DNA of 64,000 nt from IMG/VR virus record IMGVR_UViG_3300043399_001317, one strand, 5' to 3'. The position numbers and the translations under genes were made by a program. The DNA comes from an uncultured virus (IMG/VR IMGVR_UViG_3300043399_001317). Its lineage: Duplodnaviria; Heunggongvirae; Uroviricota; Caudoviricetes. The notes under the pieces are model-generated. The model was not told the DNA's origin. It did not search any database and was given only the letters and a program-made list of their open reading frames with translations. Below, piece by piece: positions 24,660 through 62,051 of this stretch. How positions within the stretch are numbered: the first letter of the stretch is position 1; each line of letters opens with the position of its first letter.

Positions 24660-25355
24660 TCAATAAATTTTGCCCACACTAAACTTAAAGTCGTCCCAAA
24701 TTAGGTATTCCCCAGACGTACCAAGCGTATCAATAAAAATAACGTCATCGCTAATAATTAAGTTCTCATATGCGGTGTGTCCAACAACTTGGATAAAACC
24801 TTCAATCCTATCTTTCATTAAACTTCTTGGTCTTACCCAAATTGGTGTTTGTTCAACATCATCTCCAAAAAAGCTGCGATTTTTACCGCCCGTAAACTTG
24901 AAAGAATTTGGTTTGAACTTAAAAAGTTCGTTAATTGATTCCTCAATAAATTCTCTCTGTATCAAATTATTGTCGCACCAAGTTTGTGTTACCCCCGCAT
25001 GGGAGAAAAGCATGTTCTGCCAAACAAAACACATCTGGAATAATTCAGCATCAATAGCGGGGTGCAATAATTCTTGTATGTCAGTCTTTTGCCAAGACTG
25101 ATAACCTGCGTAAGACTCAGTTGAACTCCCCAAATAATGGTAGTCGTGGTTTCCAAACAACAAAACAACCTTATCCATGTTCGCTTTCTTATAGGCGAGT
25201 ATTTCTTTAAAGTTTTCTTTTTGCTGTTCGGCTGAAATATCTTCACGGGTATCAAAATAATCACCCATAAAAACAACCTTATCAAACTTTTCCTTGGCTA
25301 TAATTTGTTTCCAAATAGTTCTGCCGTGTATATCCCCTAATCCAATTATCCTCAT
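24660..25355 (-). CDS. Calcineurin-like metallophosphoesterase
   Basis: GDIHG, GDYFD, GNHD, SHAG, VGHT, IDT. Confidence 0.92.
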   Translation of the reverse strand: MRIIGLGDIHGRTIWKQIIAKEKFDKVVFMGDYFDTREDISAEQQKENFKEILAYKKANMDKVVLLFGNHDYHYLGSSTESYAGYQSWQKTDIQELLHPAIDAELFQMCFVWQNMLFSHAGVTQTWCDNNLIQREFIEESINELFKFKPNSFKFTGGKNRSFFGDDVEQTPIWVRPRSLMKDRIEGFIQVVGHTAYENLIISDDVIFIDTLGTSGEYLIWDDFKFSVGKIY

Positions 25356-28018: not shown

Positions 28019-28858
28019 TTATGCTTTCATTTGTGGTAATGTTGTAAACCCTCCCACAATGGATAAATTGGCATCGGAGAGGTCAACATTTTCCATTTGG
28101 ACATTGTCCAAACTTGCGCTTTCAAAATTTGCTTTCAATATTTTTGAATTGAATATTTGGCTTTCATCGAAAAAAGCCCCGGTGAAATTTGATTCCAAAA
28201 AATTTGAGTTCAATATGTTGCAATGCATAAGGTTTGTTCCAACCATTTCCATTTTATTCATTTTTGTTTCCTCGATTCCGGTATTCCGCATATTTGCCCC
28301 AATGAGTTTGACATTATTCACATTTGCGTTAAAAAAATGCGATTCAACCAATTCGGACCCGGTTAAGTTTAAATTGTTAAGGGTGCAATAATGGAATTCG
28401 GCATATTTCAGTTTGGAATAAGCCATATTGACATTGTTCAAGATTGCGTTATCCATTTTGGCATGTTCCATATGTGCCTCCCTGAAATCGGAGTCGAGCA
28501 ATTCTGCCCCACGCAGGACAACGCTTGGCATAAAAGCCTTATGGAAGTTTGAATTTTTTATTTTTGAGCTTGACATATTTGCGTTTATGAACTCCGCCTC
28601 AAAAGCATTGCAGTTATCAAAAACGCAATTGGTCAATTTGGTTGTGTTCATTTGCGTCCCTTCCATCTTTACATTGAAAAAATAAGACCATGCCATATTT
28701 GATGCTGAAAAAACGCAACGCTCCAAGTTGCAATCGATAAATTCTGACATTTCAAAACTAATTCCATGAAAATCCAGCCCAGAAAGGTCAAGATTCAGAA
28801 AACGGTTTTGCCCTTTTTTGAGAAGTTCCAAAACTTCATCTTTTGTCATTTTTTTCAT
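28019..28858 (-). CDS. Pentapeptide-repeat protein
   Basis: Pentapeptide repeats; N-cap MTKDEVLELLKKGQNRF. Confidence 0.92.
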   Translation of the reverse strand: MKKMTKDEVLELLKKGQNRFLNLDLSGLDFHGISFEMSEFIDCNLERCVFSASNMAWSYFFNVKMEGTQMNTTKLTNCVFDNCNAFEAEFINANMSSSKIKNSNFHKAFMPSVVLRGAELLDSDFREAHMEHAKMDNAILNNVNMAYSKLKYAEFHYCTLNNLNLTGSELVESHFFNANVNNVKLIGANMRNTGIEETKMNKMEMVGTNLMHCNILNSNFLESNFTGAFFDESQIFNSKILKANFESASLDNVQMENVDLSDANLSIVGGFTTLPQMKA

Positions 28859-37629: not shown

Positions 37630-37775
37630 GAATAACACATGCTGGCTTTTCGGGAGGCTACAAAGAAACCAACAACGTTCGCCCCCTCTTATAATGTGTT
37701 ATGAATAACACATGCTGGCTTTTCGGGAGGCTACAAAGAAACCAACAACGTTCGCCCCCTCTTATAATGTGTTAT
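37630..37775 (-). repeat. Perfect 73-bp tandem duplication, probably a structured RNA
   Basis: Units 37630-37702 and 37703-37775 are identical; each is closed by ATAACACAT/ATGTGTTAT; starts right after a promoter at 37782. Confidence 0.9.
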
Positions 37776-37860
37776 CTTCTGCAAAGATAATACATTTTTT
37801 TAATCTTGTCAAGTTTTTTTCAAAAAAAATGGGGAGAAATATATTCCCCCCATAAAAAAA

Positions 37861-42369: not shown

Positions 42370-42888
42370 TTAACCCATAACAGGCAATCCTTTGCAGTTT
42401 GTGAGGATTGCTCCGGTCAGGTTGGCATTACTAAGGTCAGCCCTTCTAAAGTCTGCATTGGTAAGGTCTGCCCCGGCTATATAAGAATCGCTTAGGTTGG
42501 CCATGTAAAGATTAGCGCCAGTTAGGTTTGCTTGATACAGGTTCGAATAACCCATATCTACCAAACCCATATTGGCTTCAGTCAAGTTTACTTTACTTAA
42601 ATTCGCACCAATTAATTTTGCTTCAGTAAGGTCGGCACCAGTAAGATTGGCCTCAGTTAAGTTTGCCTTGATTAAAGAAACCTCCGTTAAGTCAGCATAA
42701 CTCAGGTCGACATTTTTTAGATTTGCCCCGGTTAGGTTTGCTTCAAATAACCAAGCATCGTTTAGTTTGGCTCCGCTCAAGTTTATATTAGTTAAATTTG
42801 CGCGGTTCAAATTTGCCTTGCTAAGGTCAACCCCCGAAAAATCCCTTTCCCCGTTGGCATATCGTTCCAATAATTCTTCTCTTGTCAT
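42370..42888 (-). CDS. Pentapeptide-repeat protein
   Basis: MTREELLERYANGERDF + ANLxx repeats. Confidence 0.95.
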   Translation of the reverse strand: MTREELLERYANGERDFSGVDLSKANLNRANLTNINLSGAKLNDAWLFEANLTGANLKNVDLSYADLTEVSLIKANLTEANLTGADLTEAKLIGANLSKVNLTEANMGLVDMGYSNLYQANLTGANLYMANLSDSYIAGADLTNADFRRADLSNANLTGAILTNCKGLPVMG

Positions 42889-43817: not shown

Positions 43818-44276
43818 TCAACCCATAATGGGCAAACCGATACATTTTGTCAGGATTGCTCCTGTAAAGTTTGTCTCGGTAAGGTTTGCCATGGTCAATT
43901 CAGCCCCAGTTAGGTCAGCTCCGCTCAGGTCAGCCTCAGTCAGGTCAGCCTTAACAAAATTAGCTTCTTTTAAGTTCGCGCCGCTCAGGTTGGCCTTCAT
44001 TAGGTATGCATCGCTCAGGTCTGCCTCAGTAAGATTTGCCTTCTGTAAGGAAGTTTCACACAAATAAGCATAACTCACGTCTGCCCCAGTAAGGTTTGCC
44101 TCGCTAAGGTTTGAATTATAAAAGTCAGCCCTTCTAAGGTCTGCATTATAAAAGTTGGCTCCGGTAAAATCTGCATATCTCAAATAAATATTTTTTAATT
44201 TTACCCAATTTAGGTCTACCCCCCTAAAATCCCGCTCTCCGGCGGCGTAACGTTCCAATAGTTCTTCTGCTGTCAT
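43818..44276 (-). CDS. Pentapeptide-repeat protein
   Basis: MTAEELLERYAAGERDF + repeats. Confidence 0.95.
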   Translation of the reverse strand: MTAEELLERYAAGERDFRGVDLNWVKLKNIYLRYADFTGANFYNADLRRADFYNSNLSEANLTGADVSYAYLCETSLQKANLTEADLSDAYLMKANLSGANLKEANFVKADLTEADLSGADLTGAELTMANLTETNFTGAILTKCIGLPIMG

Positions 44277-44297: not shown

Positions 44298-44828
44298 TTA
44301 ATCCATAACATACAATCCTTTGCAGTTTGTTAGGATTGTTCCAGTAAGGTTTGCATTAGTTAAATTGGTATCGGTAAAGTCGGCTCCAGTTAGGTTTGCC
44401 CCGCTCAGGTCAGCCCCGGTTAAGTCAGCGCCTAAAAGTTTTACGTTAGTTAGGTCAGCATTATTCATTTTCGCATTATTTAATTTTGCACCGACCAAAA
44501 GGGTGCGATTTAGTTTTGCTCCAATCATGTCAACACTTCTCAGGTTTGCCCCGCTTAGGTCAGCATTGCTCAAGTCAGCCCCTGTAAGATTTGACCACCT
44601 CATATTTGCCCCGGTCAGGTTTGTCCAGATAAGTTTTGCATTGGTTAAGTTTACACGGGTAAGTTTTGCCCATCTAAGGTTTGTCTCTGTAAAATTTACC
44701 CCGGTTAGATTTATCCCAAATTTAATTCCATTTAGAGTTAACCCGCTAAGGTTCGTATTTCTCAAGTCGAACAACCTAAAATCCCTTTCCCCGGCAGCAT
44801 AACTCTCCAAAAACTCCTCTCTTGTCAT
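44298..44828 (-). CDS. Pentapeptide-repeat protein
   Basis: Start MTREEFLESYAAGERDF. Confidence 0.95.
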   Translation of the reverse strand: MTREEFLESYAAGERDFRLFDLRNTNLSGLTLNGIKFGINLTGVNFTETNLRWAKLTRVNLTNAKLIWTNLTGANMRWSNLTGADLSNADLSGANLRSVDMIGAKLNRTLLVGAKLNNAKMNNADLTNVKLLGADLTGADLSGANLTGADFTDTNLTNANLTGTILTNCKGLYVMD

Positions 44829-44934
44829 ATTTTTATTTTTTATTAACACAAAGATAAATGATATTTTTAGAAAAACCAAATTTATTTGAGAAAAAAATTC
44901 CCCTCACATTAAAAAATATGAAGGGAATTATAAG

Positions 44935-45645
44935 TTATTTTAACCCTTTAACATCGGTAAGGTTTGCCCCGGTCAGGTTGGCCGTACTGAAATAGGCATT
45001 GGTCAAGTCGGCTCCGGTTAGGTTTGCACCCCTAAGATTAACCCCGGTTAGGTTTGTCCCGTACAAACCTGCTGAACTCAAGTCGGTTTTGCTCAGGTTT
45101 GCGTTGCTCAATTCAGTATTGTTCAGGTTGGCCGTATTCAGTTCAGCCCATTGCAAGTTTGCACCAGTAAGGTCAGCCCCGGACAAGTCGGCTCCAGTAA
45201 GGTTGACTGAGAAAAGGTCTAGTAGTCTTAGATTTGCCCCTCTCAGGTTTGCCCCTTTCAGGTTTGCCCCTCTCAGTGGGGTAAATCTGAGGTCTAAACC
45301 ACTCAGGTCAGCCCCGCTCAGGTTGGAATGACTAAGGTTTGTCCAATTAAGGTCGGCACCCGTAAGGTTTACACCCTCCAAATACTGATAACTAAGGTTT
45401 AGTTGCCGTAGGTTCGCCCCTCTGAAATCCCTTTCCCCGGAATTATATCTTTCTAAGAAAAGCCCTGATTCCGTTTCCACGTCGTTTTCAATAGACGTAA
45501 TGAAAGATACCATTCCACCATTTTGTAATTGGTTTATGGCTTTTTCCTGCACTTCATTTAGGAAATTCACATCCTCATAAGGCATTTCAGAATCACATTT
45601 AACAGAAACCAAAATGGTAACTTCAACCAGTTTATTTTTTCCCAT
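44935..45645 (-). CDS. Pentapeptide-repeat protein with extra ~60-aa N-terminal domain
   Basis: Unrelated N-terminus joined to FLERYNSGERDF + repeats. Confidence 0.9.
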   Translation of the reverse strand: MGKNKLVEVTILVSVKCDSEMPYEDVNFLNEVQEKAINQLQNGGMVSFITSIENDVETESGLFLERYNSGERDFRGANLRQLNLSYQYLEGVNLTGADLNWTNLSHSNLSGADLSGLDLRFTPLRGANLKGANLRGANLRLLDLFSVNLTGADLSGADLTGANLQWAELNTANLNNTELSNANLSKTDLSSAGLYGTNLTGVNLRGANLTGADLTNAYFSTANLTGANLTDVKGLK

Positions 45646-45702: not shown

Positions 45703-46452
45703 TTAGTTGCAGTAGCTTTCGGCCATTTCCCAGAGCTTGAGGTTAACCTCGTTCTCAAGGGAGAAATTTTTGATTGGCCGAGCTTTGCGGGTTTTACCGT
45801 CCTTTTGCATTTCAACTTTGCCCCGGACAAGTTTTTCCTGAGCGATGTTGAAGATGTTCCAAACGGTCGGATTTTCGTCCTCTGTCCTTTCCGCCTGAAT
45901 GTAATCATCAAAGATTACATCCACGTTCCCCTCCCACCGGATTGCGAGAGATTTGCGGAAAAACTCCAGCGCGTCGGTTTCCTCTATCCGGGTTTCCTGC
46001 ATCCGCTTAACGCGGTCGGAAACGGAAGGTAGGAAGGCCGCAAAACGCTCCATGAGTTCCTTCAGTTCGGAGGATTCGATGTTGGTGTGGCGAATGCGCA
46101 GCGATTCGTTGAACCCTTGCACCGGAACGGTAAGGCCGTTTTCACAAGCCAGACGGAACAAGCCCATGTCGAAGGAAATGGGCGCTTTCCCGTTGTGGCT
46201 GTTGATGATAACGATTTCGGGCGCGGTGTCGCCCACAGTAATGAGGCCACCGTTTGTCATCCTTACTTCGTGCTTATCAAAGGCACGGTTTTCGGTGGAA
46301 CGGCTTTTGGATTGCCGGGCATTGCGAACAGACCAGCCAAGGTCTTCGAGGCCCCGCACCAGTTGGTGCGTTGAAACGAAAGAGTAGCGGTCGGACATTT
46401 GCGGTGCGGCTTGCTTTGAGAATACAGCCGGGCAGTTGATTAGTTGTGACAT
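45703..46452 (-). CDS. DUF932/DUF945-like protein
   Basis: SDRYSFVST, KHEVRM, PEIVIINSHNG, GLFRLACENGL, IRH, WNIFNIAQE; visibly GC-richer than neighbours. Confidence 0.85.
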   Translation of the reverse strand: MSQLINCPAVFSKQAAPQMSDRYSFVSTHQLVRGLEDLGWSVRNARQSKSRSTENRAFDKHEVRMTNGGLITVGDTAPEIVIINSHNGKAPISFDMGLFRLACENGLTVPVQGFNESLRIRHTNIESSELKELMERFAAFLPSVSDRVKRMQETRIEETDALEFFRKSLAIRWEGNVDVIFDDYIQAERTEDENPTVWNIFNIAQEKLVRGKVEMQKDGKTRKARPIKNFSLENEVNLKLWEMAESYCN

Positions 46453-46586: not shown

Positions 46587-47045
46587 TTATTTTTGGAATA
46601 ATAACCCAATGACCCCGTCCAGATAAACCCCGGTCAACTTCGCATCAGTCAGGTTTGCCCCGGTCAGGTTTGCTCCGCTCAGGTTGGCAAAGTTTAGGTC
46701 TGCCCCGCTAAGGTCGGCATTGGTTAGGTCAGCCGTTTTAAGGTTTGCCCACCTCATATTTGCCTCTCGCAAGTCAGCGCCGCTCAAGTTTGCCCCGGTA
46801 AGGTCAGCCCCGAAAAGGCTTGCATCTTTCAGGTTTGAATCGTTCAAGTCAGCCCCGCTCAGGTCGGCTCTATTTAGGAAAGACCAGCTAAGGTCAACCC
46901 CGCTTAGGTTAGCCCCGCTCAGGTTCGCCTTGAATAACTCAGAAACTTTGAGATTAGCCCCGCTTAGTTCCAACCCTTTTAGGTCAGTTTCCATAAAATC
47001 CCGCCTTCCGGCAGCGTAATGTCCCAATAATTCTTCTGCTGTCAT
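46587..47045 (-). CDS. Pentapeptide-repeat protein
   Basis: MTAEELLGHYAAGRRDF + repeats. Confidence 0.95.
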   Translation of the reverse strand: MTAEELLGHYAAGRRDFMETDLKGLELSGANLKVSELFKANLSGANLSGVDLSWSFLNRADLSGADLNDSNLKDASLFGADLTGANLSGADLREANMRWANLKTADLTNADLSGADLNFANLSGANLTGANLTDAKLTGVYLDGVIGLLFQK

Positions 47046-47162
47046 GTTTTTAGTTTTTTATTGATACAAAGATAAAAGTTATTTTTCAAATAAGCAAATT
47101 TATTTCCAAATAAAAAACCTAATACCGTTAAGATATAAGGATTTTTTCTGGTTGTAAGGGGT

Positions 47163-47498
47163 TTATAGAAATACCTTCCTGTCACCCAGTTGCATGAAAG
47201 CCCCGCTCAGGTTGGCTTCGCTCATATTTGTCCCTCCGAAGGAAGCCTCTGTCAGATTTGCCCCTCCGAAGTCAGTCAGATATAAGTTAGCCTCTACAAG
47301 GTTTGCCCCGGTCAAGTCAGCATCGGTTAGGTTGGCCATGTATAGTGCAGCACTACTCAAGTCTACACCTTTCAGGTTTGCCCCAGTCAGGTCAGCCCAA
47401 ATTAATGTTGCTCTGGTCAGGTTTGCCCCGCTTAGGTCAACCCACCGAAAATCCCGCTGCCCGGCAGCGTAACGTCCCAATAGTTGTTCTGCTGTCAT
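47163..47498 (-). CDS. Pentapeptide-repeat protein
   Basis: MTAEQLLGRYAAGQRDF + repeats. Confidence 0.95.
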   Translation of the reverse strand: MTAEQLLGRYAAGQRDFRWVDLSGANLTRATLIWADLTGANLKGVDLSSAALYMANLTDADLTGANLVEANLYLTDFGGANLTEASFGGTNMSEANLSGAFMQLGDRKVFL

Positions 47499-47618
47499 AT
47501 ATTTTTTTATTTAGTGATTTAATAAGACAAAGATAAAGGTTATTTTGGAATAAACAAAAAAAAATGGGGACATTTTTAGTTGCCCCCATAAAAAAAAATA
47601 ATTCTGCTAAAACATATC

Positions 47619-48641
47619 TCAAAAAGCTAAACGTTGAAAATCTGGTCGTACCATGTCCCATATAGCTTGGGAGTAGTCTTTGCCGTCCATCATCTTAAAC
47701 AGTATGTGTTTCACGTCTGGATAATCAGATATTGCCTTTAAAGCAAAAGTTTTTCTATCCTCACAAAGAGGTTTTATAACATTGTAGGCATCAACAGCAG
47801 CTTTTTCGATTTCCAAATAATCCGCTGTTAATTTTTCTTTTACATTCCTTACAGAATTGTAAAATTCGTCTGGAACCCTATCCAATATCTCATCGAACGG
47901 CAAATTATCTTTCAAGTATTCCCATATGGTAACATTGGTAACGTTGGTTAATATCCTGTGCATACGCACATACCAATCACCTTTTACTTTTATTCTGAAA
48001 CCATTTGAGAAACGAATAGTATAACCTTCCCTGTTTTCCTCAATATTAGATGTGCAGAAAAGTTCCTCCAAGGTTTTATTTTCATACCTTTTAACAATAG
48101 TAAAACCCTTTGGTAAATCAGAATAGGGTAATTCTTTAGCGTCCTTTGTACGTATTGCGCCCAGTAGAACCAAATCTTCAAAATTATATTTACAAACTAT
48201 TCGATTCGTAGCATATATGATTTCAAACATATAGGTATATTCAGGGTTTAAGGAATCGTACAGATTCAGGGAATCCATCATTTCCTTTGCCCTTACAGCT
48301 TGTTCAGAAGTGAATGAACCCCTTGAGGATAAAATCCACTTGTTGTCGTAATAGAACAATATACCCAAGGAACCATCCATTTTCTCGAACACCTCAAAAG
48401 AAGTGTTTGGTATTTCTTCAGGGTTATGTTCCGAGAAGTTAAAGAACTTACCGAAAGGACGGGCAACAACAACATTACCATCCATAACCAAACCCCTACA
48501 AACCAAAGTTACATCGTCCCACAACTTTTCGTATTGCGTTTTAGGCGTGTAGTTATATATTTTGAGGTTAGGATATTCAGGGTGAACCTGATATTGCAAC
48601 AAACCCCTTTCCACATAACCTGCCAATATTTCCTCTCTCAT
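47619..48641 (-). CDS. T4 Rnl1-like RNA ligase
   Basis: CRGLV, ARPFGKFFN, EKMDGSLG, SRGSF, MFEII, EGY, KVK..WY. Confidence 0.9.
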   Translation of the reverse strand: MREEILAGYVERGLLQYQVHPEYPNLKIYNYTPKTQYEKLWDDVTLVCRGLVMDGNVVVARPFGKFFNFSEHNPEEIPNTSFEVFEKMDGSLGILFYYDNKWILSSRGSFTSEQAVRAKEMMDSLNLYDSLNPEYTYMFEIIYATNRIVCKYNFEDLVLLGAIRTKDAKELPYSDLPKGFTIVKRYENKTLEELFCTSNIEENREGYTIRFSNGFRIKVKGDWYVRMHRILTNVTNVTIWEYLKDNLPFDEILDRVPDEFYNSVRNVKEKLTADYLEIEKAAVDAYNVIKPLCEDRKTFALKAISDYPDVKHILFKMMDGKDYSQAIWDMVRPDFQRLAF

Positions 48642-48645
48642 GGTT

Positions 48646-49029
48646 TTATAATTTTATGTTAAACCTTTTTTGCATTTTCAACAAAGTCTCATCAGGAACG
48701 TCATGCACGTTTACACCACCATGCCTGTTTTCTACAATAAGAACAAACGTTTGGTAGTTATGTTCACTGGCCAAAGAAATATATCCGGCCATTTCTTTCT
48801 CGGTTGTAAAAGTATTCGACACTGCAATTTTGTCTTCACCAGACGTCATTGCATTTTCAACTTTTTTGTAACACCAGTCATGGGCTTCTTTCAATTTGTT
48901 AAATTGAAAGTTATACACACCATCCCGCATAAAGTACATGTCAGCCTCGAAGTGGGGACACCCCAGAGATTTTGCGAAGGTAGATTTCCCAGAACCGGGC
49001 AAGCCTCTAACAATATATAATATTTTCAT
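48646..49029 (-). CDS. P-loop kinase (AAA_33 / polynucleotide-kinase-like)
   Basis: RGLPGSGKST, FEADMYF, VSNTFT, NVHDVP. Confidence 0.85.
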   Translation of the reverse strand: MKILYIVRGLPGSGKSTFAKSLGCPHFEADMYFMRDGVYNFQFNKLKEAHDWCYKKVENAMTSGEDKIAVSNTFTTEKEMAGYISLASEHNYQTFVLIVENRHGGVNVHDVPDETLLKMQKRFNIKL

Positions 49030-49676
49030 ATGTGATGGTCTTCTGGTAGAACCAGATTTTTGATTTGTTTATTTTTAAGGATTTCAAAAACATCATCCAG
49101 TAGCATAGGTTTCAGGTCGTTCCCGTCGATTCCAATATCCATGTAACGTCCATCAGATACTCTCAGGTGTTTGGGCAGGTGTGTATGTCCGTGAAGGTGA
49201 AAAACTCCCTTTCCCATGTTAGGCCAAGAAGCAACCGGAAGATGTGAAATGAAAAACACTCGGGTTTTTTCATTAAACTTTCTTTCCAGTATCATTGTTT
49301 CGCTGACCGAAGAGAAAAGTTTTTGAACATCCTCTTTATTCTTTTCGATGTGGTGGTCATGATTCCCGAGAATTAAATGCACATTTTGGCAAACAATCCG
49401 ATTTCGGAATTCAATAATTTTTTCAAACCCCCCAAAGGAAAAGTCGCCCGCATGGATTAGGATATCATCCTGACCGACCACATTGTTTATGTTGTTAACA
49501 ATGTGGTCGTTCATTTGTTCAATGGTATCAAAATCCCTTGTTTTGGAACCATCCGGCCATGATGTTGTACCACGGCAAATGTTGGCATGTCCGTAATGAG
49601 TATCAGAACAAAGCCATATTTTTTTATCGTCTGAGAATTTCGTAATCTTGTTCATTTCATTCATTTTATAACACAA
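49026..49676 (-). CDS. Calcineurin-like phosphoesterase
   Basis: SDTHYGH, AGDF, GNHD, LHGHTH, DIGID. Confidence 0.9.
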   Translation of the reverse strand: MCYKMNEMNKITKFSDDKKIWLCSDTHYGHANICRGTTSWPDGSKTRDFDTIEQMNDHIVNNINNVVGQDDILIHAGDFSFGGFEKIIEFRNRIVCQNVHLILGNHDHHIEKNKEDVQKLFSSVSETMILERKFNEKTRVFFISHLPVASWPNMGKGVFHLHGHTHLPKHLRVSDGRYMDIGIDGNDLKPMLLDDVFEILKNKQIKNLVLPEDHHI

Positions 49677-49700
49677 AGATAAAGGTTATTTTTTAATTAT

Positions 49701-50171
49701 TCAATCAATGTCTGGATAAATTTTTCTTATTTTATTCGTTGCGATATTCACTTCCCAAAAGTCATTTATAAGGTATATGGTTGGACTAATTATTTTTATA
49801 GTTTCAGCAGTCTCATCTATATATTTTTCGAACAAAAACAAAGCATTGTTTAGTTTGTTTTTACTTATGGCGTCATTTTTTCTACTCCTTATTGGTTCGA
49901 AGTCACCATTTTTTTTAATTTCTTTAATTGTAGCGATGTAAAAAGGACATTGATAATCTATATTCACATTTAATTGTCTGGCCAAAATCCTTTCAACAGC
50001 TCTCAATAAAGATAGTAGTGTTTCATTTTTATTTTGAATGATTGCACTTTTTGTTTGACCTCGGATAGAACGCCTTTGTTCTGTACTGAATTTATCAGAG
50101 TAAATATCAGTTATTTCCATGATTAAACCCCCCGGACATTCAGATTGATAAATTTTTTTATTGGCCGTCAT
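49701..50171 (-). CDS. Hypothetical protein (N-terminus related to 60717..60977)
   Basis: Shared C.G.L..EI...Y...F...QRRS..G..K. Confidence 0.7.
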   Translation of the reverse strand: MTANKKIYQSECPGGLIMEITDIYSDKFSTEQRRSIRGQTKSAIIQNKNETLLSLLRAVERILARQLNVNIDYQCPFYIATIKEIKKNGDFEPIRSRKNDAISKNKLNNALFLFEKYIDETAETIKIISPTIYLINDFWEVNIATNKIRKIYPDID

Positions 50172-50289
50172 TTGTTTTTATTTTATTGATACAAAGATAA
50201 AGGTTATTTATCAAATAAGCAAATTTATTTTCAAATAAAAAACCCCATACCTTTATCTAGATATGGGGTTTTCATAGAGACAAATGGGT

Positions 50290-50544: not shown

Positions 50545-50628
50545 GATTAATTTATTTGTTAATTTAAAAAAGAAAGGCCAGAATGAAAACCTTCATCACT
50601 GACCTTACCAAAAACCTGAGAAAATTTG

Positions 50629-50703
50629 ATAATCCGGCCAGAATCGAACTAGCTGCCTCCCCAATGTCTGGAATAGGGCGCTCTACCAATGAGCTACGGA
50701 TTA
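50629..50703 (-). tRNA. Atypical tRNA with 10-nt anticodon loop (identity undetermined)
   Basis: Acceptor TAATCCG/CGGATTA, D arm GCTC/GAGC, stem CCCTA/TGGGG around TTCCAGACAT, T arm GCTAG-TTCGATT-CTGGC. Confidence 0.75.
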
Positions 50704-50705
50704 AG

Positions 50706-50779
50706 TAGAGTAAGCAGGACTCGAACCTGCAACCACCAGAACCCAAATCTGGTACGCTAGCCAATTGCGCCATTACTCT
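50706..50779 (-). tRNA. tRNA-Pro(TGG)
   Basis: Canonical cloverleaf; CCAGA-TT TGG GT-TCTGG; GCAGG-TTCGAGT-CCTGC. Confidence 0.93.
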
Positions 50780-50793
50780 ATATTTCAAAAAAA

Positions 50794-50909
50794 GTGGGGG
50801 AGACCTAAACTCGATGAACTCATATGCGTACATACAAGCGCGAAAGCGGAAATGGACGTAATTGCAGCGGATAACGCAAACGCTGGGCGTCCTGAAGGTC
50901 AGCCCCCAC
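50794..50909 (-). ncRNA. Y-shaped ncRNA, family copy 1
   Basis: Closing GTGGGGG(CT)GACCT/AGGTC(T)CCCCCAC then T7; arm GGACG/CGTCC; arm with TACG tetraloop; own promoter. Confidence 0.7.
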
Positions 50910-50919
50910 AGCTTCTTTT

Positions 50920-50960
50920 CACTCAACAAAGATAAGAACTTTTTCAAATCTTGTCAAGTG
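50920..50960 (-). promoter_or_regulatory. Strong host-type promoter, repeated nearly identically across the RNA island
   Basis: Minus strand CTTGACAAGATTTGAAAAAGTTCTTATCTTTGTTG; copies near 51390, 51700, 51900 and variants near 52040, 52665. Confidence 0.85.
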
Positions 50961-50979
50961 TTTTTGAATATTTTTTTTG

Positions 50980-51108
50980 CGGTTGGGGCAGGATTCGAAC
51001 CTGCATCCATGTATCTGTAGCCCCAGAAGCTGACCCAGTTTTCCTCCATTATAGAGCAGCCTTTTTTCGGAGTTGGACCGGGGTGTCAACCAATTCCACC
51101 ACCCAACC
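50980..51108 (-). ncRNA. tRNA-like RNA with a 51-nt domain in place of the anticodon loop
   Basis: Acceptor GGTTGGG/CCCAACC, Leu-type D arm GTGGAATTGGTTGACAC, T arm GCAGG-TTCGAAT-CCTGC, long variable region; insert 51027-51077. Confidence 0.8.
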
Positions 51109-51122
51109 AATTTATTTTTTTT

Positions 51123-51272
51123 GACTCATGGCAGGACTCGAACCTGCATTTAACTGCGCAATTAAACCACATAGTCGCATTATATCATTATATGCTACTG
51201 GTCTTAGGTTCGACCGGGAGAGCTTATCCTACCTTCCCCTATGTGTGCGGCTACCCATTTCGCCACATGACC
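51123..51272 (-). ncRNA. tRNA-like RNA with a 64-nt three-hairpin domain in place of the anticodon loop
   Basis: Acceptor GGTCATG/CATGAGT (one mismatch), D arm GCG..CGC, stem CACATAG/CTATGTG, variable arm TTTAATT/AGTTAAA, T arm GCAGG-TTCGAGT-CCTGC. Confidence 0.8.
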
Positions 51273-51287
51273 CAAATTCGCAAAAAA

Positions 51288-51373
51288 GTGTGGGGGCTGG
51301 CCTTCAGCGAGTTGGTTCTATCCGTGGTCAACCGGACCCCCCATAGACAGCAAAAGCATACATCGCAGCCGTC
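51288..51373 (-). ncRNA. Candidate two-domain ncRNA
   Basis: Hairpin GACGGC/GCTGTC then a domain closed by TGGGGG/CCCCCA and a T tract; directly after a promoter. Confidence 0.5.
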
Positions 51374-51446
51374 TTTTCTTTCACCCAACAAAGATAAGAA
51401 CTTTTTCAAATCTTGTCAAGTGTTTTTGAATGTTTTTTTTAAAAAA

Positions 51447-51571
51447 GTGGGGGCGACCTTTGAATCGCGGAAGTCGGGCGCATATAAGCGCGAATGCGGA
51501 GATGGACGTTTTCGCTCAGTCGCCCCAAAAGGGGATACAAACTGGTGCATGTCCTGAAGGTCAGCCCCCAC
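51447..51571 (-). ncRNA. Y-shaped ncRNA, family copy 2
   Basis: Shares GAAGCTGTGGGGGCTGACCTTCAGGAC and ACGTCCATYTCCGCWTTCGCGCTTRTATG with copy 1. Confidence 0.7.
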
Positions 51572-51580
51572 AGCTTCTTT

Positions 51581-51682
51581 GTTGTCGGCGAGGAGTGGAC
51601 TTTTACCACAGCTAAGAGAGTTTTCTTTCTCTTTCGCAACCTCAAGTTAGGCTTGTGCATCTTGCACTACCCCGGCGACAAC
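51581..51682 (-). ncRNA. Candidate multi-branch ncRNA
   Basis: Closing GTTGTCG/CGACAAC; hairpins GTGCA/TGCAC, AGCCT/AGGTT, AGAGA/TCTCT; directly after a promoter. Confidence 0.6.
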
Positions 51683-51756
51683 TTTTCTTTTCACACAACA
51701 AAGATAAGAACTTTTTCAAATCTTGTCAAGTTTTTTCTTGTTTTTTTTTAAAAAAA

Positions 51757-51885
51757 GTGGGGGCGACCCTCTTTGCGGCGGAACCATCCGATTATATCGG
51801 TAGGCGGGGCCGTAAGACTATCTGCTGCGTTACGCTCTGGCCCCTTGAGACCAGCACAACAGGTTAAAGTAAAGTCAACCCCCAC
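51757..51885 (-). ncRNA. Y-shaped ncRNA, family copy 3 (divergent interior)
   Basis: Closing GTGGGGGTTGACTT/GGGTCGCCCCCAC; arms CTGTTG/CAGCAG (inner TGGTCT/GGGCCA) and CGGC/GCCG (inner CCGAT/ATCGG). Confidence 0.65.
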
Positions 51886-51956
51886 AGTTTCTTTTCACTC
51901 AACAAAGATAAGAACTTTTTCAAATCTTGTCAAGTGTTTTGTGATATTTTTTTTAG

Positions 51957-52028
51957 TACTCCCTACGGGATTCGAACCCGTGTTACCAGATAGAAAGTCC
52001 GGTGTCTTAACCACTTGACCAAAGGAGC
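51957..52028 (-). tRNA. tRNA-Glu(TTC)
   Basis: Cloverleaf GCTCCTT/AGGGAGT; CCGGA-CT TTC TA-TCTGG; ACGGG-TTCGAAT-CCCGT. Confidence 0.92.
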
Positions 52029-52133
52029 AATTTGATAGAACAAAGATAAGAGGTTTTTCTGATTTTGTCAAGTTTTTTTTGACTTTTTTTTGTGGGGGCA
52101 ACATTTTTTTTTGTTACCCCCACACCGGTCATA

Positions 52134-52583
52134 TTACTTGGACAATGCCTCCTCGAGTTTTTTGAACTCTTCGTCGGTCATATTCTTGTAAGCAGCCATT
52201 TGACGTTCTTGCTTGATTTGGGCAAGCAATTCCATCGTTTCCTTTTTTGCCCGGGCATTTTCGGCGCGTTGCGCAGCTTCTTTTTCTTCTTCCTCCCTTT
52301 TCGATATGATGTAGGATACCACATCCAACATGAGCTTCAGCCTTTGTTCTTCGCTGGTTGGGGTTTCCCTACGACGGCGAGGGATTTCAGAGATTTTCTT
52401 AGTGAGTTCATCCTCCAAATCGTAAAGGTTTGGGGCGGAAACACCTCGTTTGATTTCGGCGTCGGTGAGTTTGATTTTGGCCTTGAAAAGGTCTTCGGTT
52501 GACACGTTGCCCGCAAGGGGGAAACGCAAACCCAGCCGTAGTGCCTGTTCGATGAGCATTGCTCCATTTACATTGTTTTCCAT
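52134..52583 (-). CDS. Hypothetical phage protein (coiled-coil C-terminus)
   Basis: A.R..LRF...G..STEDLF; GC-richer codon usage. Confidence 0.75.
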   Translation of the reverse strand: MENNVNGAMLIEQALRLGLRFPLAGNVSTEDLFKAKIKLTDAEIKRGVSAPNLYDLEDELTKKISEIPRRRRETPTSEEQRLKLMLDVVSYIISKREEEEKEAAQRAENARAKKETMELLAQIKQERQMAAYKNMTDEEFKKLEEALSK

Positions 52584-52703
52584 GTTCTTTAGGTTTTTTT
52601 TGTGGGGGCTATCATTAGCGTTTTGACAGCCCCCGGTTAATGATTAATTGCCTTAAATTTACCTTACAAAGATAAGAACTTTTTTAAATCTTGTCAAGTC
52701 TTT

Positions 52704-54836
52704 TTAGAAATTTATTTTCATAAATCTCGTATGTGTTCCCACAACCTTGACAACCAAAGAGTTCCGCATGGTGGCGTTGAACCCAAGACCAGCCAAACAT
52801 TTCTCAGAAGGCTTTATTTTCCTTATGTCGGACAGAATTTGGAGGGGCTTACGGAACTGCAAAAGTTCCCCAACCAAAAATTGGTTATGGAAGCTAGCAA
52901 GCGGCGCGTCCGGTTTGCAATTATCCAACATAAAGAAATAATGTTTGGTATCAAATTTGTTTTCACCCCAGTAGTTAGGGGAAAGTGAAACCAATTTCAC
53001 GGTATGAAAATCATTCAAGCTCAATCCCCAGACTTCGCGAGAGGTTTTATCCTCTTTAATAAAGCCTTGCACTTTGACAAACTCCCCGTTCTCAAATTCG
53101 ACCGTTGCTACCGTAACAGTCCCGGTCAGTTTTCCCTCATACACATACGTGTATGTTTCCCCGTTCAGATACAGTTCGGCACGGAACCCGTTGTGGTTTC
53201 TATCGTTGTAGTTGTTTACTTCAAATTTATATATACCATCAACAAGTTTTTCAGTAGATTCCCAGTATATGTTTTCAACTCCAACGGTAGTAGGGCTTCT
53301 CATGTCAACATCCAATTGACCTCCCATGGAAGTTTTGTTATATCCACCCCGGCTTTTTAGGAAATCAGAGCCGTAGTAGATATGCGTACCGTTCGGTTCC
53401 TTTGCGTGTGCATCCAAGTCTACAATATCGCCCCCGTTTTCATTCCAGATGATAGAGAATCGGAAGGGCGCGTCGACAAAACCGCCAGCCTTTTTAACCT
53501 CTTGTTTGATGGTTGATACCCCGGTAAGGCCGTTGATATACGTCCAGCCAAAGTTATTGTTCCATTTGAAGATACCCTTTTCGGCGTCAGAGGTATGCAA
53601 GGCCACAAAGTTTTCGGCGTGATTATGTTTGACCAATGCCTCAATTTTGGTAGCTTTTGGCAATACGTTGGACATAAATTCTCCAATTCCAATTTCAACA
53701 ACACCGTCAATTTTGGCTTTTCCGTGTCTTGTGGGTTTTTGACTAGGAACGTTGGCAAATAGCCCGACATTTTTTACCTTTCCGTCAACATTTTTGTGAT
53801 ATACCTCAGAAATGTTGATATCGGAAAGCGATGCAAAACGACGGTTGAAAGCCTCTAGGTAGCCCTTTTCTTCAATGAATTTTTCGGTTTCTACCTTCAT
53901 TTTTTCAGTGAAAATGGGTGTTTTAGAACGCATGAAGTTCGCAGGGTCTACCTTAACATTATACGAATGTACTGCATCGTCCAAATCCATGCCTTGAGAA
54001 AGGCTAACCAGAAGATTCCCAATGGATTCGTTGCGCAACTTCGCATAAGGCAGCGATTCGGCCACTTTCCAACAGAAGTTGGTTTTTTGGCTTTCAGAGA
54101 GCTGACCATATTCAGTCTTCAATTTGGCAATTTTGGCCAACTTATATACTTGTTGTTCTGAGTTTTTAACCGAGTCCTGCTCAATCAGTTCGATAACCAA
54201 TTCAATGGTATCAACGTCAACCTCCTCCATTAGGCGTTGGAACACCTCAGCAGGGGCACGTTTTTCGGTCATTAAGAACTCGGGAGACTTGTTTGAAAAA
54301 GAAAGGTTTTCCCGGTTCAGCATCACATGGAAATGATTGAATTCGTATGTTTTCCCCGCTGTTACCATGCCATACACAGCAGCTTCTTCTGGTGTGTACA
54401 CCTTCAACGTTCGTTCGTGGCCAAGTTGGAACAAGTTATCCCCCCTTTTTATTTTGCTATAAGGCATAGCATTCAGTACGTCAAACGTCTCAACAAAGGC
54501 ATCGACAACTTTTGCACCCTTAAAAAGGTCTTTGACCGCGTTTACGGCGTTAGCATACGGTTCGGGTGCGTCAAAATCAAAGAGGTGAACAATTTTATTT
54601 TCCTCATCGATTGCTACAACGTTGCCGTACCGACGAATGAAGTTGCGGTCGTGGTTGCAGTTGTGGTACGTCGATTCCGGGTGTCGGAACACCGGGTTTT
54701 CTTCAGCAGTGAATCCGTTGATGTAGGCATCCCAGATTTGGTCGCCCGTTACATCAACTCGGTAAAGTTTGCCAACTCGCTGCATATGCGAGAATTGGAT
54801 TTTTACCATTGAATTGAAATTTAGAAATGTTATCAT
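52704..54836 (-). CDS. Large hypothetical phage protein with DUF2135/YfaP-like domain
   Basis: HNCNHD near the N-terminus; W.....VDLDAH..EP.G.HIYY, GGQLDVDM, VENIYW. Confidence 0.7.
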   Translation of the reverse strand: MITFLNFNSMVKIQFSHMQRVGKLYRVDVTGDQIWDAYINGFTAEENPVFRHPESTYHNCNHDRNFIRRYGNVVAIDEENKIVHLFDFDAPEPYANAVNAVKDLFKGAKVVDAFVETFDVLNAMPYSKIKRGDNLFQLGHERTLKVYTPEEAAVYGMVTAGKTYEFNHFHVMLNRENLSFSNKSPEFLMTEKRAPAEVFQRLMEEVDVDTIELVIELIEQDSVKNSEQQVYKLAKIAKLKTEYGQLSESQKTNFCWKVAESLPYAKLRNESIGNLLVSLSQGMDLDDAVHSYNVKVDPANFMRSKTPIFTEKMKVETEKFIEEKGYLEAFNRRFASLSDINISEVYHKNVDGKVKNVGLFANVPSQKPTRHGKAKIDGVVEIGIGEFMSNVLPKATKIEALVKHNHAENFVALHTSDAEKGIFKWNNNFGWTYINGLTGVSTIKQEVKKAGGFVDAPFRFSIIWNENGGDIVDLDAHAKEPNGTHIYYGSDFLKSRGGYNKTSMGGQLDVDMRSPTTVGVENIYWESTEKLVDGIYKFEVNNYNDRNHNGFRAELYLNGETYTYVYEGKLTGTVTVATVEFENGEFVKVQGFIKEDKTSREVWGLSLNDFHTVKLVSLSPNYWGENKFDTKHYFFMLDNCKPDAPLASFHNQFLVGELLQFRKPLQILSDIRKIKPSEKCLAGLGFNATMRNSLVVKVVGTHTRFMKINF

Positions 54837-55093: not shown

Positions 55094-55699
55094 TTAAAAT
55101 TTGCAATTTGTGATAATCGCTTCGTTTAAATTCACACCAGACATGGTAGAATCTGTAAAATCGCAGCCATTCAGTTTGGCATCTTTGAAATCAACAGACA
55201 TCATTTTTGAACGTCTCATGTTGACATTATTGACCTCAGTTGAAGCGAAAGAACATTCGGTTAGTCTGGACGTTTCAAAATTGGTTTCAAGTAAAAAACA
55301 ATTATAAAAATTAACGTCCGAAAAATCACTAATTAGTGTTGTACATCTAAGGTTAGCCCCACTCATCCGTACATTTCTAAGGAATGATGAAAAAATCCCG
55401 GCCTCAGAAAGATTTGCACCTCTTAGGTCTACATTTTCCATTACATTACCCGGCATACGACATTTGAAAAGGTTGGCTTTCCTGAATTTGGTGTCTATTA
55501 AAAGCGCACCAGAAATTTCCGCCCCTATTAATATGGCGTGTTCCAGTACAACATTTTTGAATTCAACATAACTCAGGTCAGCCCCGTTGAGGTTTATATC
55601 GCTCAAATCCACATCGTTCAGGCAGACACCCTTTAGGCAAATACCCTGAAAATCCCGCTCCCCGGCAGCGTAGCGCTTCAATAATTCGGTTGTGGTCAT
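55094..55699 (-). CDS. Pentapeptide-repeat protein
   Basis: MTTTELLKRYAAGERDF + repeats. Confidence 0.95.
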   Translation of the reverse strand: MTTTELLKRYAAGERDFQGICLKGVCLNDVDLSDINLNGADLSYVEFKNVVLEHAILIGAEISGALLIDTKFRKANLFKCRMPGNVMENVDLRGANLSEAGIFSSFLRNVRMSGANLRCTTLISDFSDVNFYNCFLLETNFETSRLTECSFASTEVNNVNMRRSKMMSVDFKDAKLNGCDFTDSTMSGVNLNEAIITNCKF

Positions 55700-56056: not shown

Positions 56057-56740
56057 TTAATTCAATTTTTGTCCCGGAAAGACTGGTGTCAACCCGTTTG
56101 AACACAATATCGCCCCGGTAAGGTTTGCTTCAATAAAATCAGCCCCGGTCCATTTGGCCTCGCGCAAGTCAGCCCCGGTCAAGTCGGCTTTGGTTAAATT
56201 AGCATAGGTCAGGTCGGCACCGTACAAGTCAGCATCATTCATTTTTGCCTCATACAGTTTTGCTGCGCTCAGGTTGGTACCATTCAGATTTGCCTTCTCT
56301 ATGTTGGCGTTACTCAGGTTAGTCTTTGTCAAATCTGCCCTGCTCAGTTTAGCCGCTCTAAGATTTACCCTCTTTAGGTTGGCGTTACTCATGTTCGCCA
56401 CAGTCAGGTTTGCCACGGTCAGGTTTGAACAAGTCATGTTAGCCTCGCTCAAGTCGGCTCCTGTAAGGTCGGCCCCGGTCAGGTTTGAACAAGTCATGTT
56501 AGCACAACGAAGGTCAGCCAAAATAAGGGTGGCTCCAATCAAGTCTGCGCCAATCAGGTCTGCCCTTATCAAGGTAGTTTTAAAAAGGTCTGCCCCTCTC
56601 ATGTAAGCCCCGGTCAAGTTTGCCTCGCTTAGGTCAGCGCCGCTTAGGTTTGCCCCTCCAAGGTCAACTCCGATAAGGTTAACCCCCCGAAAATCCCGCT
56701 GCCCGGAAGCGTAGCGAGTCAATAGTTCTTCTGCTGTCAT
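56057..56740 (-). CDS. Pentapeptide-repeat protein
   Basis: MTAEELLTRYASGQRDF + repeats. Confidence 0.95.
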   Translation of the reverse strand: MTAEELLTRYASGQRDFRGVNLIGVDLGGANLSGADLSEANLTGAYMRGADLFKTTLIRADLIGADLIGATLILADLRCANMTCSNLTGADLTGADLSEANMTCSNLTVANLTVANMSNANLKRVNLRAAKLSRADLTKTNLSNANIEKANLNGTNLSAAKLYEAKMNDADLYGADLTYANLTKADLTGADLREAKWTGADFIEANLTGAILCSNGLTPVFPGQKLN

Positions 56741-59702: not shown

Positions 59703-60383
59703 CTATTCTACCTTATTGGTTTTCACCCCGGTAAGGTTTGCCCCAGTTATGTTGACCCCGGTCAGTTTCGCCCCGGTCAGGTCGGCCTCGGTTAGGTCTG
59801 CATCGCTTAGGTTGACACTATTTAGGGTGGCACTATTTAGGTTGGTACCGATAAGGTTCGCCCCTCTCATGCAAGCACCATTCAGGTTTGCCCCGGTCAG
59901 GTCGGCCTTACCAAGTTCAACCTCTACCATATTTGCACCAGCCATATTTGCTTGTCTCATATCAGAACAACTCAAGTTTGCCCCAGCCATATTAACACCG
60001 ATTAAGTTCGCCCCGCTCAAGTCGGCATTGTAAAGGTGAGCGCCCCTCAAGTTTGTCCAGATAAGTTTTGCGTCGCTCAGGTTCGCAAACACTAAACAAG
60101 CATCGCTAAGGTCTGCTCCGCTCAGGTTTGCATTGTATAGAGACGCTTTGCTAAAATTAACCCCTTTCAAGTTCGCCCCGCTCAAGTTGGCATTGTACAG
60201 GTAAACCCCAGTCAGGTCGGCCCCAGTCAGGTCAGCCCCAGTCAGGTCAGACTCGCGTAGGTTTGCGTAACTAAGGTTCGCCCCGGCTAGATTTACCCCG
60301 GTCAGTTTTAACCGGTATAAATTAGCTCCTTTAAAATCCCGCTCCCCGGCGGCGTAGCGTTCTAAAAGTTTTTCCGCTGTCAT
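59703..60383 (-). CDS. Pentapeptide-repeat protein
   Basis: MTAEKLLERYAAGERDF + repeats. Confidence 0.95.
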   Translation of the reverse strand: MTAEKLLERYAAGERDFKGANLYRLKLTGVNLAGANLSYANLRESDLTGADLTGADLTGVYLYNANLSGANLKGVNFSKASLYNANLSGADLSDACLVFANLSDAKLIWTNLRGAHLYNADLSGANLIGVNMAGANLSCSDMRQANMAGANMVEVELGKADLTGANLNGACMRGANLIGTNLNSATLNSVNLSDADLTEADLTGAKLTGVNITGANLTGVKTNKVE

Positions 60384-61499: not shown

Positions 61500-62051
61500 C
61501 TATTCTACCTTATTGGTTTTCACCCCGGTAAGGTTTGCCCCAGTTATGTTGACCCCGGTCAGTTTCGCCCCGGTCAGGTCGGCCTCGGTTAGGTCCGCAT
61601 AGCTTAGGTTGGTTCCGTTTAATGTTGTGTTACTTAGGTTCGCCCCTTTCAGGTTTGCACCATTCAGGTTTGCACCATTCAGGTTTGCACCGCTAAGGTT
61701 TGTATCATGAAGGTCGGTATTGGTCAGGTTTGCCCCGGCTAGGTTTGCCTCTATCATATTAGAACAACTTGTATTAGCAAAAGTCATATTTACACCGATT
61801 AGGTTTGCTTCAACCAAATTGGTACTATAGAGGCTAGCACCGCTCAGGTTTACCCAGATAAGTTTTGCCTTGTTCAGGTTTGAAAAGTTGAGGTTTGCAT
61901 CGGTCAGGTTGGCACCGCTTAGGCTGGCCCCACTCAGGTTTATTTCGCTTAGGTTTACCCCGCTTAGGTTGGCCCCAGTAAGGTCAGCACCCGAAAAATC
62001 CCGCTCTCCGTATGCATAGCTTTCCAATAACAATAATTCTTCTGCTGTCAT
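61500..62051 (-). CDS. Pentapeptide-repeat protein
   Basis: MTAEELLLLESYAYGERDF; 3' end identical to the 59703 gene. Confidence 0.95.
   Translation of the reverse strand: MTAEELLLLESYAYGERDFSGADLTGANLSGVNLSEINLSGASLSGANLTDANLNFSNLNKAKLIWVNLSGASLYSTNLVEANLIGVNMTFANTSCSNMIEANLAGANLTNTDLHDTNLSGANLNGANLNGANLKGANLSNTTLNGTNLSYADLTEADLTGAKLTGVNITGANLTGVKTNKVE

Follow-up and report, generated by a model that had tools for sequence, protein, structure and literature searches.

An array of small RNA genes was found on the minus strand of a 64,000-nucleotide (nt) stretch of DNA from an uncultured virus of the Caudoviricetes (IMG/VR record IMGVR_UViG_3300043399_001317), the whole of which is referred to here as the window. 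The array runs from position 52130 to 50566 as a row of short transcription units, all of its features lying on the minus strand, and combines two canonical transfer RNAs (tRNAs) with tRNA-framed RNAs and other RNAs. It is a variant of the theme of stable RNAs in a phage tRNA cluster, and the observation itself is no artefact. It stands out in that each cassette has a strong promoter, that tRNA frames carry a folded module in exchange for the anticodon arm, that one helix shell is shared by RNAs of differing interior, and that cassettes are shuffled between strains. The array products are probably expressed small RNAs, and our best single guess, offered tentatively, is that the non-decoding tRNA look-alikes act as tRNA mimics or decoys.

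Layout and promoters of the array

Read along the minus strand, the array consists of a hairpin, promoter P1 and tRNA-Glu; promoter P2 and RNA A3 with a U7 tract; promoter P3, RNA B and RNA A2 with a U6 tract; promoter P4, RNA C with a U6 tract, and the tRNA-framed RNAs T2 and T1; and promoter P5, RNA A1 with a U7 tract, tRNA-Pro, a third tRNA gene termed here the odd tRNA, and a hairpin terminator. The promoters have the form TTGACA-N17-TATCTTTG. Four exact copies of the 31-mer TTGACAAGATTTGAAAAAGTTCTTATCTTTG were located in the array (P2, 51903..51933; P3, 51699..51729; P4, 51389..51419; P5, 50927..50957; all minus), and a copy with one mismatch (P0, 52667-52697, minus) drives an open reading frame (ORF) of 149 amino acids (aa; 52583-52134), with none expected from 100 shuffles. 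The looser pattern TTGACA-N17-TAnnTTTG adds P1, which has a variant spacer (52041-52071, minus), and a site at 37782-37812, giving seven sites in the 64-kb window against 0.04 expected, five of which fall within 50927-52071. The -7 box TATCTTTG matches the flavobacterial sigma-A consensus TAnnTTTG given in PMC9723704. A Bacteroidota host is likely, since the -7 box fits this consensus and the best cultured-phage matches of a neighbouring 710-aa protein are Cellulophaga phages (38-39% identity). The array is closed by an intrinsic terminator consisting of a hairpin and a U-run (50566..50609, minus; z -3.1, where z-scores of folding are relative to shuffled sequences throughout). Four ORFs of 81-127 aa occur within the array; they overlap tRNAs and promoter repeats, and none of them had a PHROGs match.

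The first-pass annotation had described ten RNA genes behind five near-identical promoters, among them two canonical tRNAs and three anticodon-altered tRNA-like RNAs. Promoter counts, ARAGORN, Rfam and folding confirmed a real, ORF-poor and promoter-driven array of RNA genes. The five promoters within 50927-52071 proved to be four exact 31-mers and one variant, and the tRNA assignments were borne out by ARAGORN, Rfam and folding. Nine of the ten RNA genes are credible, but C is doubtful because its fold (z -0.2) is indistinguishable from shuffles.

A G5/C5 stem motif (…GGGGG…CCCCCAC) was also seen on both sides of the 149-aa ORF. One stem, GGGGGCUGUC...GAUAGCCCCC, is a hairpin in the 5' untranslated region (5'UTR) of the ORF (52604-52634, minus; z -5.2), giving the order P0, hairpin, ORF; the other is a 12-bp hairpin after the stop codon (52092..52123, minus; z -4.7). 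Each stem is followed by an A-run and not by a U-run. Where 5.8 copies of the heptamer CCCCCAC would be expected in the window, 15 were counted, 10 of them within 50794-52608.

tRNAs and tRNA-framed RNAs

In the whole window, the only Rfam matches above threshold were tRNA-Glu, tRNA-Pro, the odd tRNA and T1, the gathering cut-off of the tRNA family (RF00005) being 29 bits. The two canonical genes, tRNA-Glu(UUC) (51956..52028, minus; 61.6 bits) and tRNA-Pro(UGG) (50705..50779, minus; 65.7 bits), were both called by ARAGORN and possess the combination of a 5-bp anticodon stem, a 7-nt loop, U33 and a purine at position 37 that is needed for decoding. This combination is absent from the odd tRNA, T1 and T2. 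In the odd tRNA (50628..50703, minus; 47.4 bits), called 'Leu(CAG)' by ARAGORN, the acceptor, D and T arms are good. Its anticodon arm has two alternative folds, one in which a 5-bp stem carries a 10-nt loop and one in which the stem has 6 bp, including a U.U pair, and position 33 is C; the loop length is strain-variable, with one extra A inserted behind 50666 in a close relative (L118, described below) and in one further contig.

T1 (tRNA body 50980..51108, minus; 36.6 bits) has a clean 7-bp acceptor stem, a D-arm and a T-arm, and carries 73 nt in place of the 18-nt anticodon arm. T2 (about 51123..51272, minus; 18.8 bits, under the cut-off) folds into an acceptor stem with a G.G mismatch, a D-arm, a variable-arm hairpin and a canonical T-arm; at its anticodon-arm site, about 100 nt form a 7-bp stem that opens into three hairpins. 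T2 was called a tRNA by ARAGORN only with the intron option, under which T1 and T2 were modelled as class II tRNAs with inserts of 42 nt and 63 nt, respectively. The resulting 'spliced' anticodon arms were poor: the stem contains a U.U or C.A pair, position 37 is a C, and an Arg anticodon would sit on a class II body. Part of T2 also aligns as a second partial tRNA, and T1, T2 and tRNA-Pro have almost the same T-arm, which forms one repeat family.

Several further assignments were tried and rejected. A leucine identity was considered for both T1 and T2. The first 27 nt of T1 matched a phage tRNA-Leu best, at only 18/27 and tied with tRNA-Ser, and the best matches of T2 were tRNA-Ile and tRNA-Ala; no amino-acid identity is therefore claimed for either. 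No transfer-messenger RNA (tmRNA) was found by ARAGORN at its default setting, and the only call at a relaxed threshold was a 548-nt 'permuted' one that spans three cassettes. T1 and T2 matched no intron family in Rfam, group I included, at E-values up to 10; inserts of 42-100 nt are too short for group I introns.

The A, B and C RNAs

A1, A2 and A3 are built on a common shell: after a leader, a G5/C5 closing helix of 14 pairs surrounds an interior that differs between them, and a U-tract follows. A1 (50794..50909, minus; z -2.5) encloses a helix termed helix P2 (GGAC/GUCC), a small NUUC hairpin and a UACG-capped hairpin, and ends in U7. A2 (51447..51571, minus; z -2.8) has the A1 shell with a different tip of helix P2, and ends in U6. 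A3 (51757..51885, minus; z -3.9) encloses two internal hairpin domains, unrelated to the interiors of A1 and A2, and ends in U7. The closing helix was 95% paired, compared with 51-60% when the partner strand was slid, and among its 14 pairs 10 are invariant and three vary on one side. B (51582..51684, minus; z -3.3) is formed by an 11-bp closing stem and four hairpins in a five-way junction, and was tRNA-like only at a relaxed ARAGORN threshold. C (51288..51385, minus) has a weak fold and an A-type 3' end (…GCCCCCACAC followed by U6), and its 3' domain is replaced in other strains.

No Rfam family was found for A, B or C, even on short sub-stretches at E-values up to 10, and A1-A3, B and C had no tRNA match in Rfam. 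The weak Rfam rows pntA, RAGATH-19 and PreQ1 sit on A/U-rich promoter DNA and were discarded. Two likenesses noted by eye were also dismissed: that of the A 5' end to tmRNA, where the 3' end has neither a T-arm nor an alanine-type acceptor stem, and a pentapeptide-like reading of A1, whose pentad pattern is not kept in A2 and A3.

Within its 5' arm, the A shell contains a 12-mer, GGGGCTGACCTT (50895-50906 and 51557-51568), that is also present at 14 coding sites of pentapeptide-repeat genes, all in the sense orientation, where it encodes G-A-D-L. When up to one mismatch was allowed, 18 sites were found in the window against 0.22 expected. Since the 12-mer lies in sense within these genes, the 3' arms of A and C are antisense to the pentapeptide-repeat messenger RNAs (mRNAs). 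The sharing may reflect chance, a shared origin or an antisense relation.

Expression evidence

The 491-nt contig X15, from a complementary DNA (cDNA) library, runs from A3 through a promoter, A1 and tRNA-Pro to the 3' end of the odd tRNA, where it stops. Two metatranscriptome contigs (X16 and X17) cover T2 and T1 with the inserts retained, and no contig skipping the inserts, as would be seen for spliced T1 or T2, was detected in the RNA runs. Those parts of the array that are uncovered in RNA contigs are uninformative either way, and runs with shares under 0.2 (X18-X20) were left out of account. Joints at T1 in DNA runs were considered as signs of splicing and rejected; they have 22-nt sides with unknown or foreign letters between them, and probably stem from other tRNAs.

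Relatives, cassette exchange and conservation

When the whole array was compared with GenBank phages, tRNA-Glu was the only match. Searches of IMG/VR with A-shell and promoter patterns yielded 20 chance coding matches, and then 0, 0 and 1 chance match. The A-shell pattern was found at three loci in species genomes, two of which (Oscillospiraceae metagenome-assembled genomes) have a 111-nt span, as in the chance coding matches. A metagenome scan returned eight loci, of which two, L117 (examined over 10.3 of 38.6 kb) and L118, are true relatives. These do not retain only the canonical tRNAs: L117 has the layout tRNA-Glu, A3 and A1-tRNA-Pro-odd tRNA, and L118 the layout tRNA-Glu, B-A2 and A1/A2 hybrid-tRNA-Pro-odd tRNA. 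T1, T2 and C are absent from both.

A deletion joint from 50916 to 51379 and the A1/A2 hybrid joint recur in contigs of sequencing runs. Runs from several studies contain 40-47% of the words of the array, in line with other cassette sets, and a diverged DNA variant has five substitutions in T1 and T2 together with a replaced 3' domain of C. Because the cassette sets of L117 and L118 differ and the same joints appear in contigs of sequencing runs, cassettes are evidently gained, lost and hybridised between close strains through recombination in the promoter repeats and inside the A paralogs.

The RNA, promoter and terminator elements shared by the window and L117 were 706/714 identical (98.9%), and the third codon positions of three neighbouring genes were 858/1037 identical (82.7%). 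The ORF directly upstream of the array was not alignable to L117 at the DNA level. Taken singly, the elements were identical to L117 at 73/73 positions (tRNA-Glu), 129/131 (A3), 118/121 (A1), 75/75 (tRNA-Pro) and 83/83 (terminator), and to L118 at 103/103 (B), 127/127 (A2) and 75/75 (tRNA-Pro). The pattern points to purifying selection on the shared RNAs or to a recent exchange of the array, the two being inseparable here because the relatives are all close ones.

RNA repair genes and the 710-aa neighbour

A complete heal-and-seal enzyme set (47619..49676, minus) lies about 950 nt downstream of the array. It consists of a calcineurin-type metallophosphoesterase encoded as its own polypeptide (49676-49026; PF00149 at 3.8e-11), a P-loop kinase with the motif GLPGSGKST (49029-48646; PF13671 at 7.5e-11; phrog_505 polynucleotide kinase at 3.8e-06), and an Rnl1-type ligase (48641-47619; PF09511 at 4.9e-15; T4 Rnl1 structure 2c5u at E 1.3e-21), the translation of which carries the KxDG nucleotidyl-transferase motif as KMDG. 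The first-pass annotation had recognised these enzymes on the same strand, in agreement with the Pfam, PHROGs and PDB matches, and had suggested a functional tie between them and the RNAs. The latter suggestion was not upheld. At the place adjoining the array, L117 is without the segment corresponding to window positions 47145-50192 (ligase, kinase, phosphoesterase and ORF156), and among 80 viral loci with a related ligase, a kinase was present in 65, a phosphoesterase in 7 and any tRNA within 8 kb in only 6. By these comparisons the repair genes adjoin the array but are not conserved with it, and appear to be an accessory neighbour.

On the other side of the array, full-length relatives of the 710-aa protein (52704-54836, minus; phrog_1735 at 4.8e-179) occur in 459 phage records, among them those of Salmonella, Klebsiella, Bacillus and Cellulophaga phages. 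The best match of the protein overall, at 45% identity, is in an uncultured 462-kb phage (LR756500.1), in which no tRNA and no array-like sequence was found within 10 kb. The gene is near tRNA genes in 8 of 12 related loci examined (L101-L112), and no insert-bearing tRNA was found in these loci. Since the 710-aa gene is near tRNAs in most of these loci and the ligase loci mostly are not, the array marks the tRNA region of the phage, with the repair module as an accessory neighbour.

The stretch directly downstream of the array varies in its accessory genes between strains. L118 is without ORF156 alone (window 49700-50176). ORF84 and ORF156 had no Pfam or PHROG family; in a protein atlas the matches of ORF156 were weak, with a Rep3_N label on 52% of members, and ORF84 gave nothing named. 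A second RNA ligase (PHA02142 OB fold and RNA_ligase domain; phrog_968; 4715-5743, minus) and a second Metallophos phosphoesterase (24660-25355, minus) were also identified in the window, and therefore it encodes more than one set of RNA-end-repair enzymes.

Relation to known systems

The nearest parallel is phage T4, in which stable RNAs of 119-139 nt occur among the phage tRNA genes. The T4 tRNA cluster is described as containing two small RNAs of unknown role, RNAC (species 1) and RNAD (species 2) (PMC3014915, PMC9697503). In the window, A, B, C, T1 and T2 are similarly placed, between the genes of tRNA-Glu and tRNA-Pro or next to them. The fold of T4 rnaC is strong (z -4.6), and like T1 and T2 it has a canonical T-arm and paired ends and no usable anticodon. 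No homology to T4 rnaC or rnaD was found beyond an 11-nt T-loop that T1 shares with rnaC. Unlike the T4 RNAs, each RNA or RNA pair of the window has its own copy of a strong promoter, the A-type G5/C5 shell and a strain-variable cassette content are present, and T1 and T2 keep a D-arm and a long variable arm.

Transfer RNAs that are encoded by phages, have altered anticodon loops and act against tRNA-targeting nucleases have been documented (PMC10264068, PMC11555353), as have tRNA-cutting defences and phage tRNA-based escape from them (PMC10264068, PMC11555353, PMC13056530). The altered anticodon loop of such escape-type tRNAs resembles the strain-variable loop of the odd tRNA. However, escape-type tRNAs still decode, whereas the odd tRNA has a 10-11-nt loop, or a 6-bp stem with the U.U pair and C33, and T1 and T2 are without any anticodon loop.

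As with T4 Pnkp and Rnl1, an Rnl1-family ligase with KxDG and a P-loop 5' kinase are adjacent in the window. The T4 3' phosphatase is a HAD-type domain. Unlike in T4 Pnkp, the phosphatase of the window is a separate Metallophos protein and not a HAD-type domain fused to the kinase. The occurrence of tRNA genes together with repair enzymes is a known jumbo-phage theme, and a HAD-type phosphatase is stated for jumbo phages (PMC7824862). Unlike the T4 repair enzymes and the jumbo-phage modules, the present enzymes are absent beside the array in L117 and mostly occur without tRNAs elsewhere.

YrlA is a modular non-coding RNA with a tRNA-like elbow and is linked to RNA repair operons. Its family (RF02553), for which the cut-off is 69 bits, gave a single match of 31.1 bits, an artefact that extends across the boundary between tRNA-Pro and the odd tRNA. 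T1 and T2, unlike YrlA, are not permuted, and no TROVE/Ro60 domain was found in the 65 window ORFs scanned against Pfam. A ToxI-like type III antitoxin was likewise rejected: the array contains no short tandem units (about 34-40 nt), its only repeat families being the promoter, the shell and the T-arm, and a Pfam scan revealed no toxin-like match in the neighbours of the array.

Possible roles of the RNAs

The readings considered here rank, from the most to the least probable, as tRNA mimics or decoys, regulatory small RNAs, a decaying array, substrates of splicing or repair, and small ORFs. According to the first, which is favoured without being expected to hold with any certainty, host RNA polymerase would transcribe the five short minus-strand cassettes, which lie behind copies of the host-type promoter, early and strongly, the timing being deduced solely from the host type of the promoters. 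The closing helices and tRNA frames would stabilise the products, and the tRNA frames would be trimmed by RNase P and CCA-tailed. The look-alikes may then occupy or misdirect host factors that bind tRNA, the most plausible of these being defence nucleases that cut tRNAs. A second, separate layer would consist of the real tRNAs and, where they are present, the heal-and-seal enzymes.

Several points weigh against the decoy reading. The RNA evidence consists of contigs only, which may reflect DNA carry-over. T2, with its mismatched acceptor stem and an Rfam score under the cut-off, could be a decaying gene, and C folds no better than chance. Compensatory changes were found in 0 of the 14 pairs of the A closing helix. 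There are only two sequence relatives, both very close, and a recent exchange of the whole array could explain their identity. Finally, A and B are without tRNA sequence features, so the mimic idea leaves them uncovered.

An extended form of the decoy reading would cover those RNAs as well, and we regard it as improbable. The array would be a natural library of scaffolded RNA decoys, built on tRNA frames (T1, T2, the odd tRNA and perhaps B) and on the G5/C5 shell (A1-A3 and C), in which each module traps a different host RNA-directed immune effector or tRNA-processing factor and the set is shuffled by recombination between promoter repeats. If so, the array would be the RNA counterpart of a phage anti-defence gene island.

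It is possible, though on balance unlikely, that the products are stable or regulatory small RNAs in the manner of T4 RNAC and RNAD, acting as RNA-RNA regulators, as sponges for proteins unrelated to tRNA, or as cis-acting transcription elements. The T4 tRNA cluster with its two small RNAs sets a precedent (PMC3014915, PMC9697503), rnaC folds strongly and has a tRNA-type T-arm in common with T1 and T2, and the lack of tRNA sequence marks in A and B fits this account, as does the excess of GGGGCTGACCTT, which makes the 3' arms of A and C antisense to pentapeptide-repeat mRNAs. However, the similarity around GGGGCTGACCTT stops at 12 nt, and the closing helix ties up the complementary arm. No antisense target of the A, B, C or T interiors was found in the rest of the window, where matches were at most 13-17 nt with E-values near chance, and homology to rnaC and rnaD is confined to the T-loop noted above.

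A decaying, recombination-scrambled tRNA array is a more doubtful explanation. The odd tRNA, T1 and T2 would be pseudogenes damaged by insertions, A and C would chiefly serve as elaborate terminator or insulator hairpins separating duplicated promoters, and only tRNA-Glu and tRNA-Pro would matter. The near-identical T-arms of T1, T2 and tRNA-Pro favour chimeras, and the second partial tRNA within T2, its G.G mismatch, the unfolded state of C and the absence of T1, T2 and C from both relatives are all in keeping with decay; moreover, the same G5/C5 stem serves as a plain hairpin after the 149-aa ORF and in its 5'UTR. Yet an intact strong promoter is kept by each cassette, and the identity of A1 and A3 between phages is 97.5-98.5%, compared with about 83% at the silent sites of the same phages. 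The closing helices enclose 92-105 nt of folded RNA, unlike simple terminators, and a standard-terminator scan finds none of them. In the diverged DNA variant, T1 and T2 have changed by five substitutions while the 3' domain of C was replaced.

That T1 and T2 are intron-bearing tRNAs, or that the RNAs are cut and then healed and sealed (spliced or circularised) by the neighbouring enzymes, is very improbable. The ARAGORN intron models, the complete enzyme set downstream and the closing helices, which bring the 5' and 3' ends together, could be cited in its support. However, the 'spliced' anticodon arms are poor, the RNA-library contigs carry the inserts with no skipping joint seen, and there was no Rfam group I intron match. 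The L117 array is without the enzymes at that place, and the ligase-kinase pair, present in 65/80 loci, mostly has no nearby tRNAs. It is scarcely credible that the A cassettes encode small proteins from a GUG at the start of the closing helix: such a start gives A1, A2 and A3 reading frames of 29, 51 and 45 codons, respectively, with MGADL or MGVDF as the first residues, behind an A-rich leader like that of Bacteroidota mRNAs and with variable stretches (27, 30 and 42 nt in A1, the A1/A2 hybrid and A2) that differ by multiples of 3, but the start codon is buried in the 14-pair GC-rich helix, the changes between the window and L117 in these frames are three non-synonymous to one synonymous, and the frames contain or end at a U-tract terminator.

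Since T4, phage tRNA clusters have been known to contain small RNAs, and what these do is a question for which this locus is an unusually clean system: each RNA has a strong promoter of its own, the RNAs follow recognisable designs, and the natural strains that differ by whole cassettes are ready-made deletion and hybrid variants. Should the look-alikes be decoys for tRNA-cutting defences, an RNA-only layer would be added to phage counter-defence. The 'tRNA scaffold' trick is known from RNA engineering, and decoys of this kind would mean that it is used in nature. If the RNAs are inert, the locus still shows promoter repeats scrambling phage tRNA arrays.

Other features of the window

The same promoter type at 37782-37812 (minus) is followed by two perfect tandem 73-nt units (37630-37775), with a 10-bp stem of the AUAACACAU type closing each of them; a 301-aa ORF (37606-36701) lies downstream of the pair. 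Without an Rfam match, the pair is a candidate for a further small-RNA locus or a structured leader.

The window encodes at least 13 paralogous pentapeptide-repeat proteins, seven recognised by Pfam and six by translation, all on the minus strand (16316-17341, 22782-23894, 28019-28858, 42370-42888, 43818-44276, 44298-44879, 44935-45645, 46587-47045, 47163-47498, 55094-55699, 56057-56740, 59703-60383 and 61500-62051). Many of them start with MTAEELL.RYAAGERDFRG.DL, and the expansion is striking for a phage; it is conceivable that these paralogs act as DNA mimics or in anti-defence. Among the pentapeptide genes lies that of a DUF932 protein (45703-46452, minus; PF06067 at 1.2e-27), which shows 91.7% nucleotide identity in L117.

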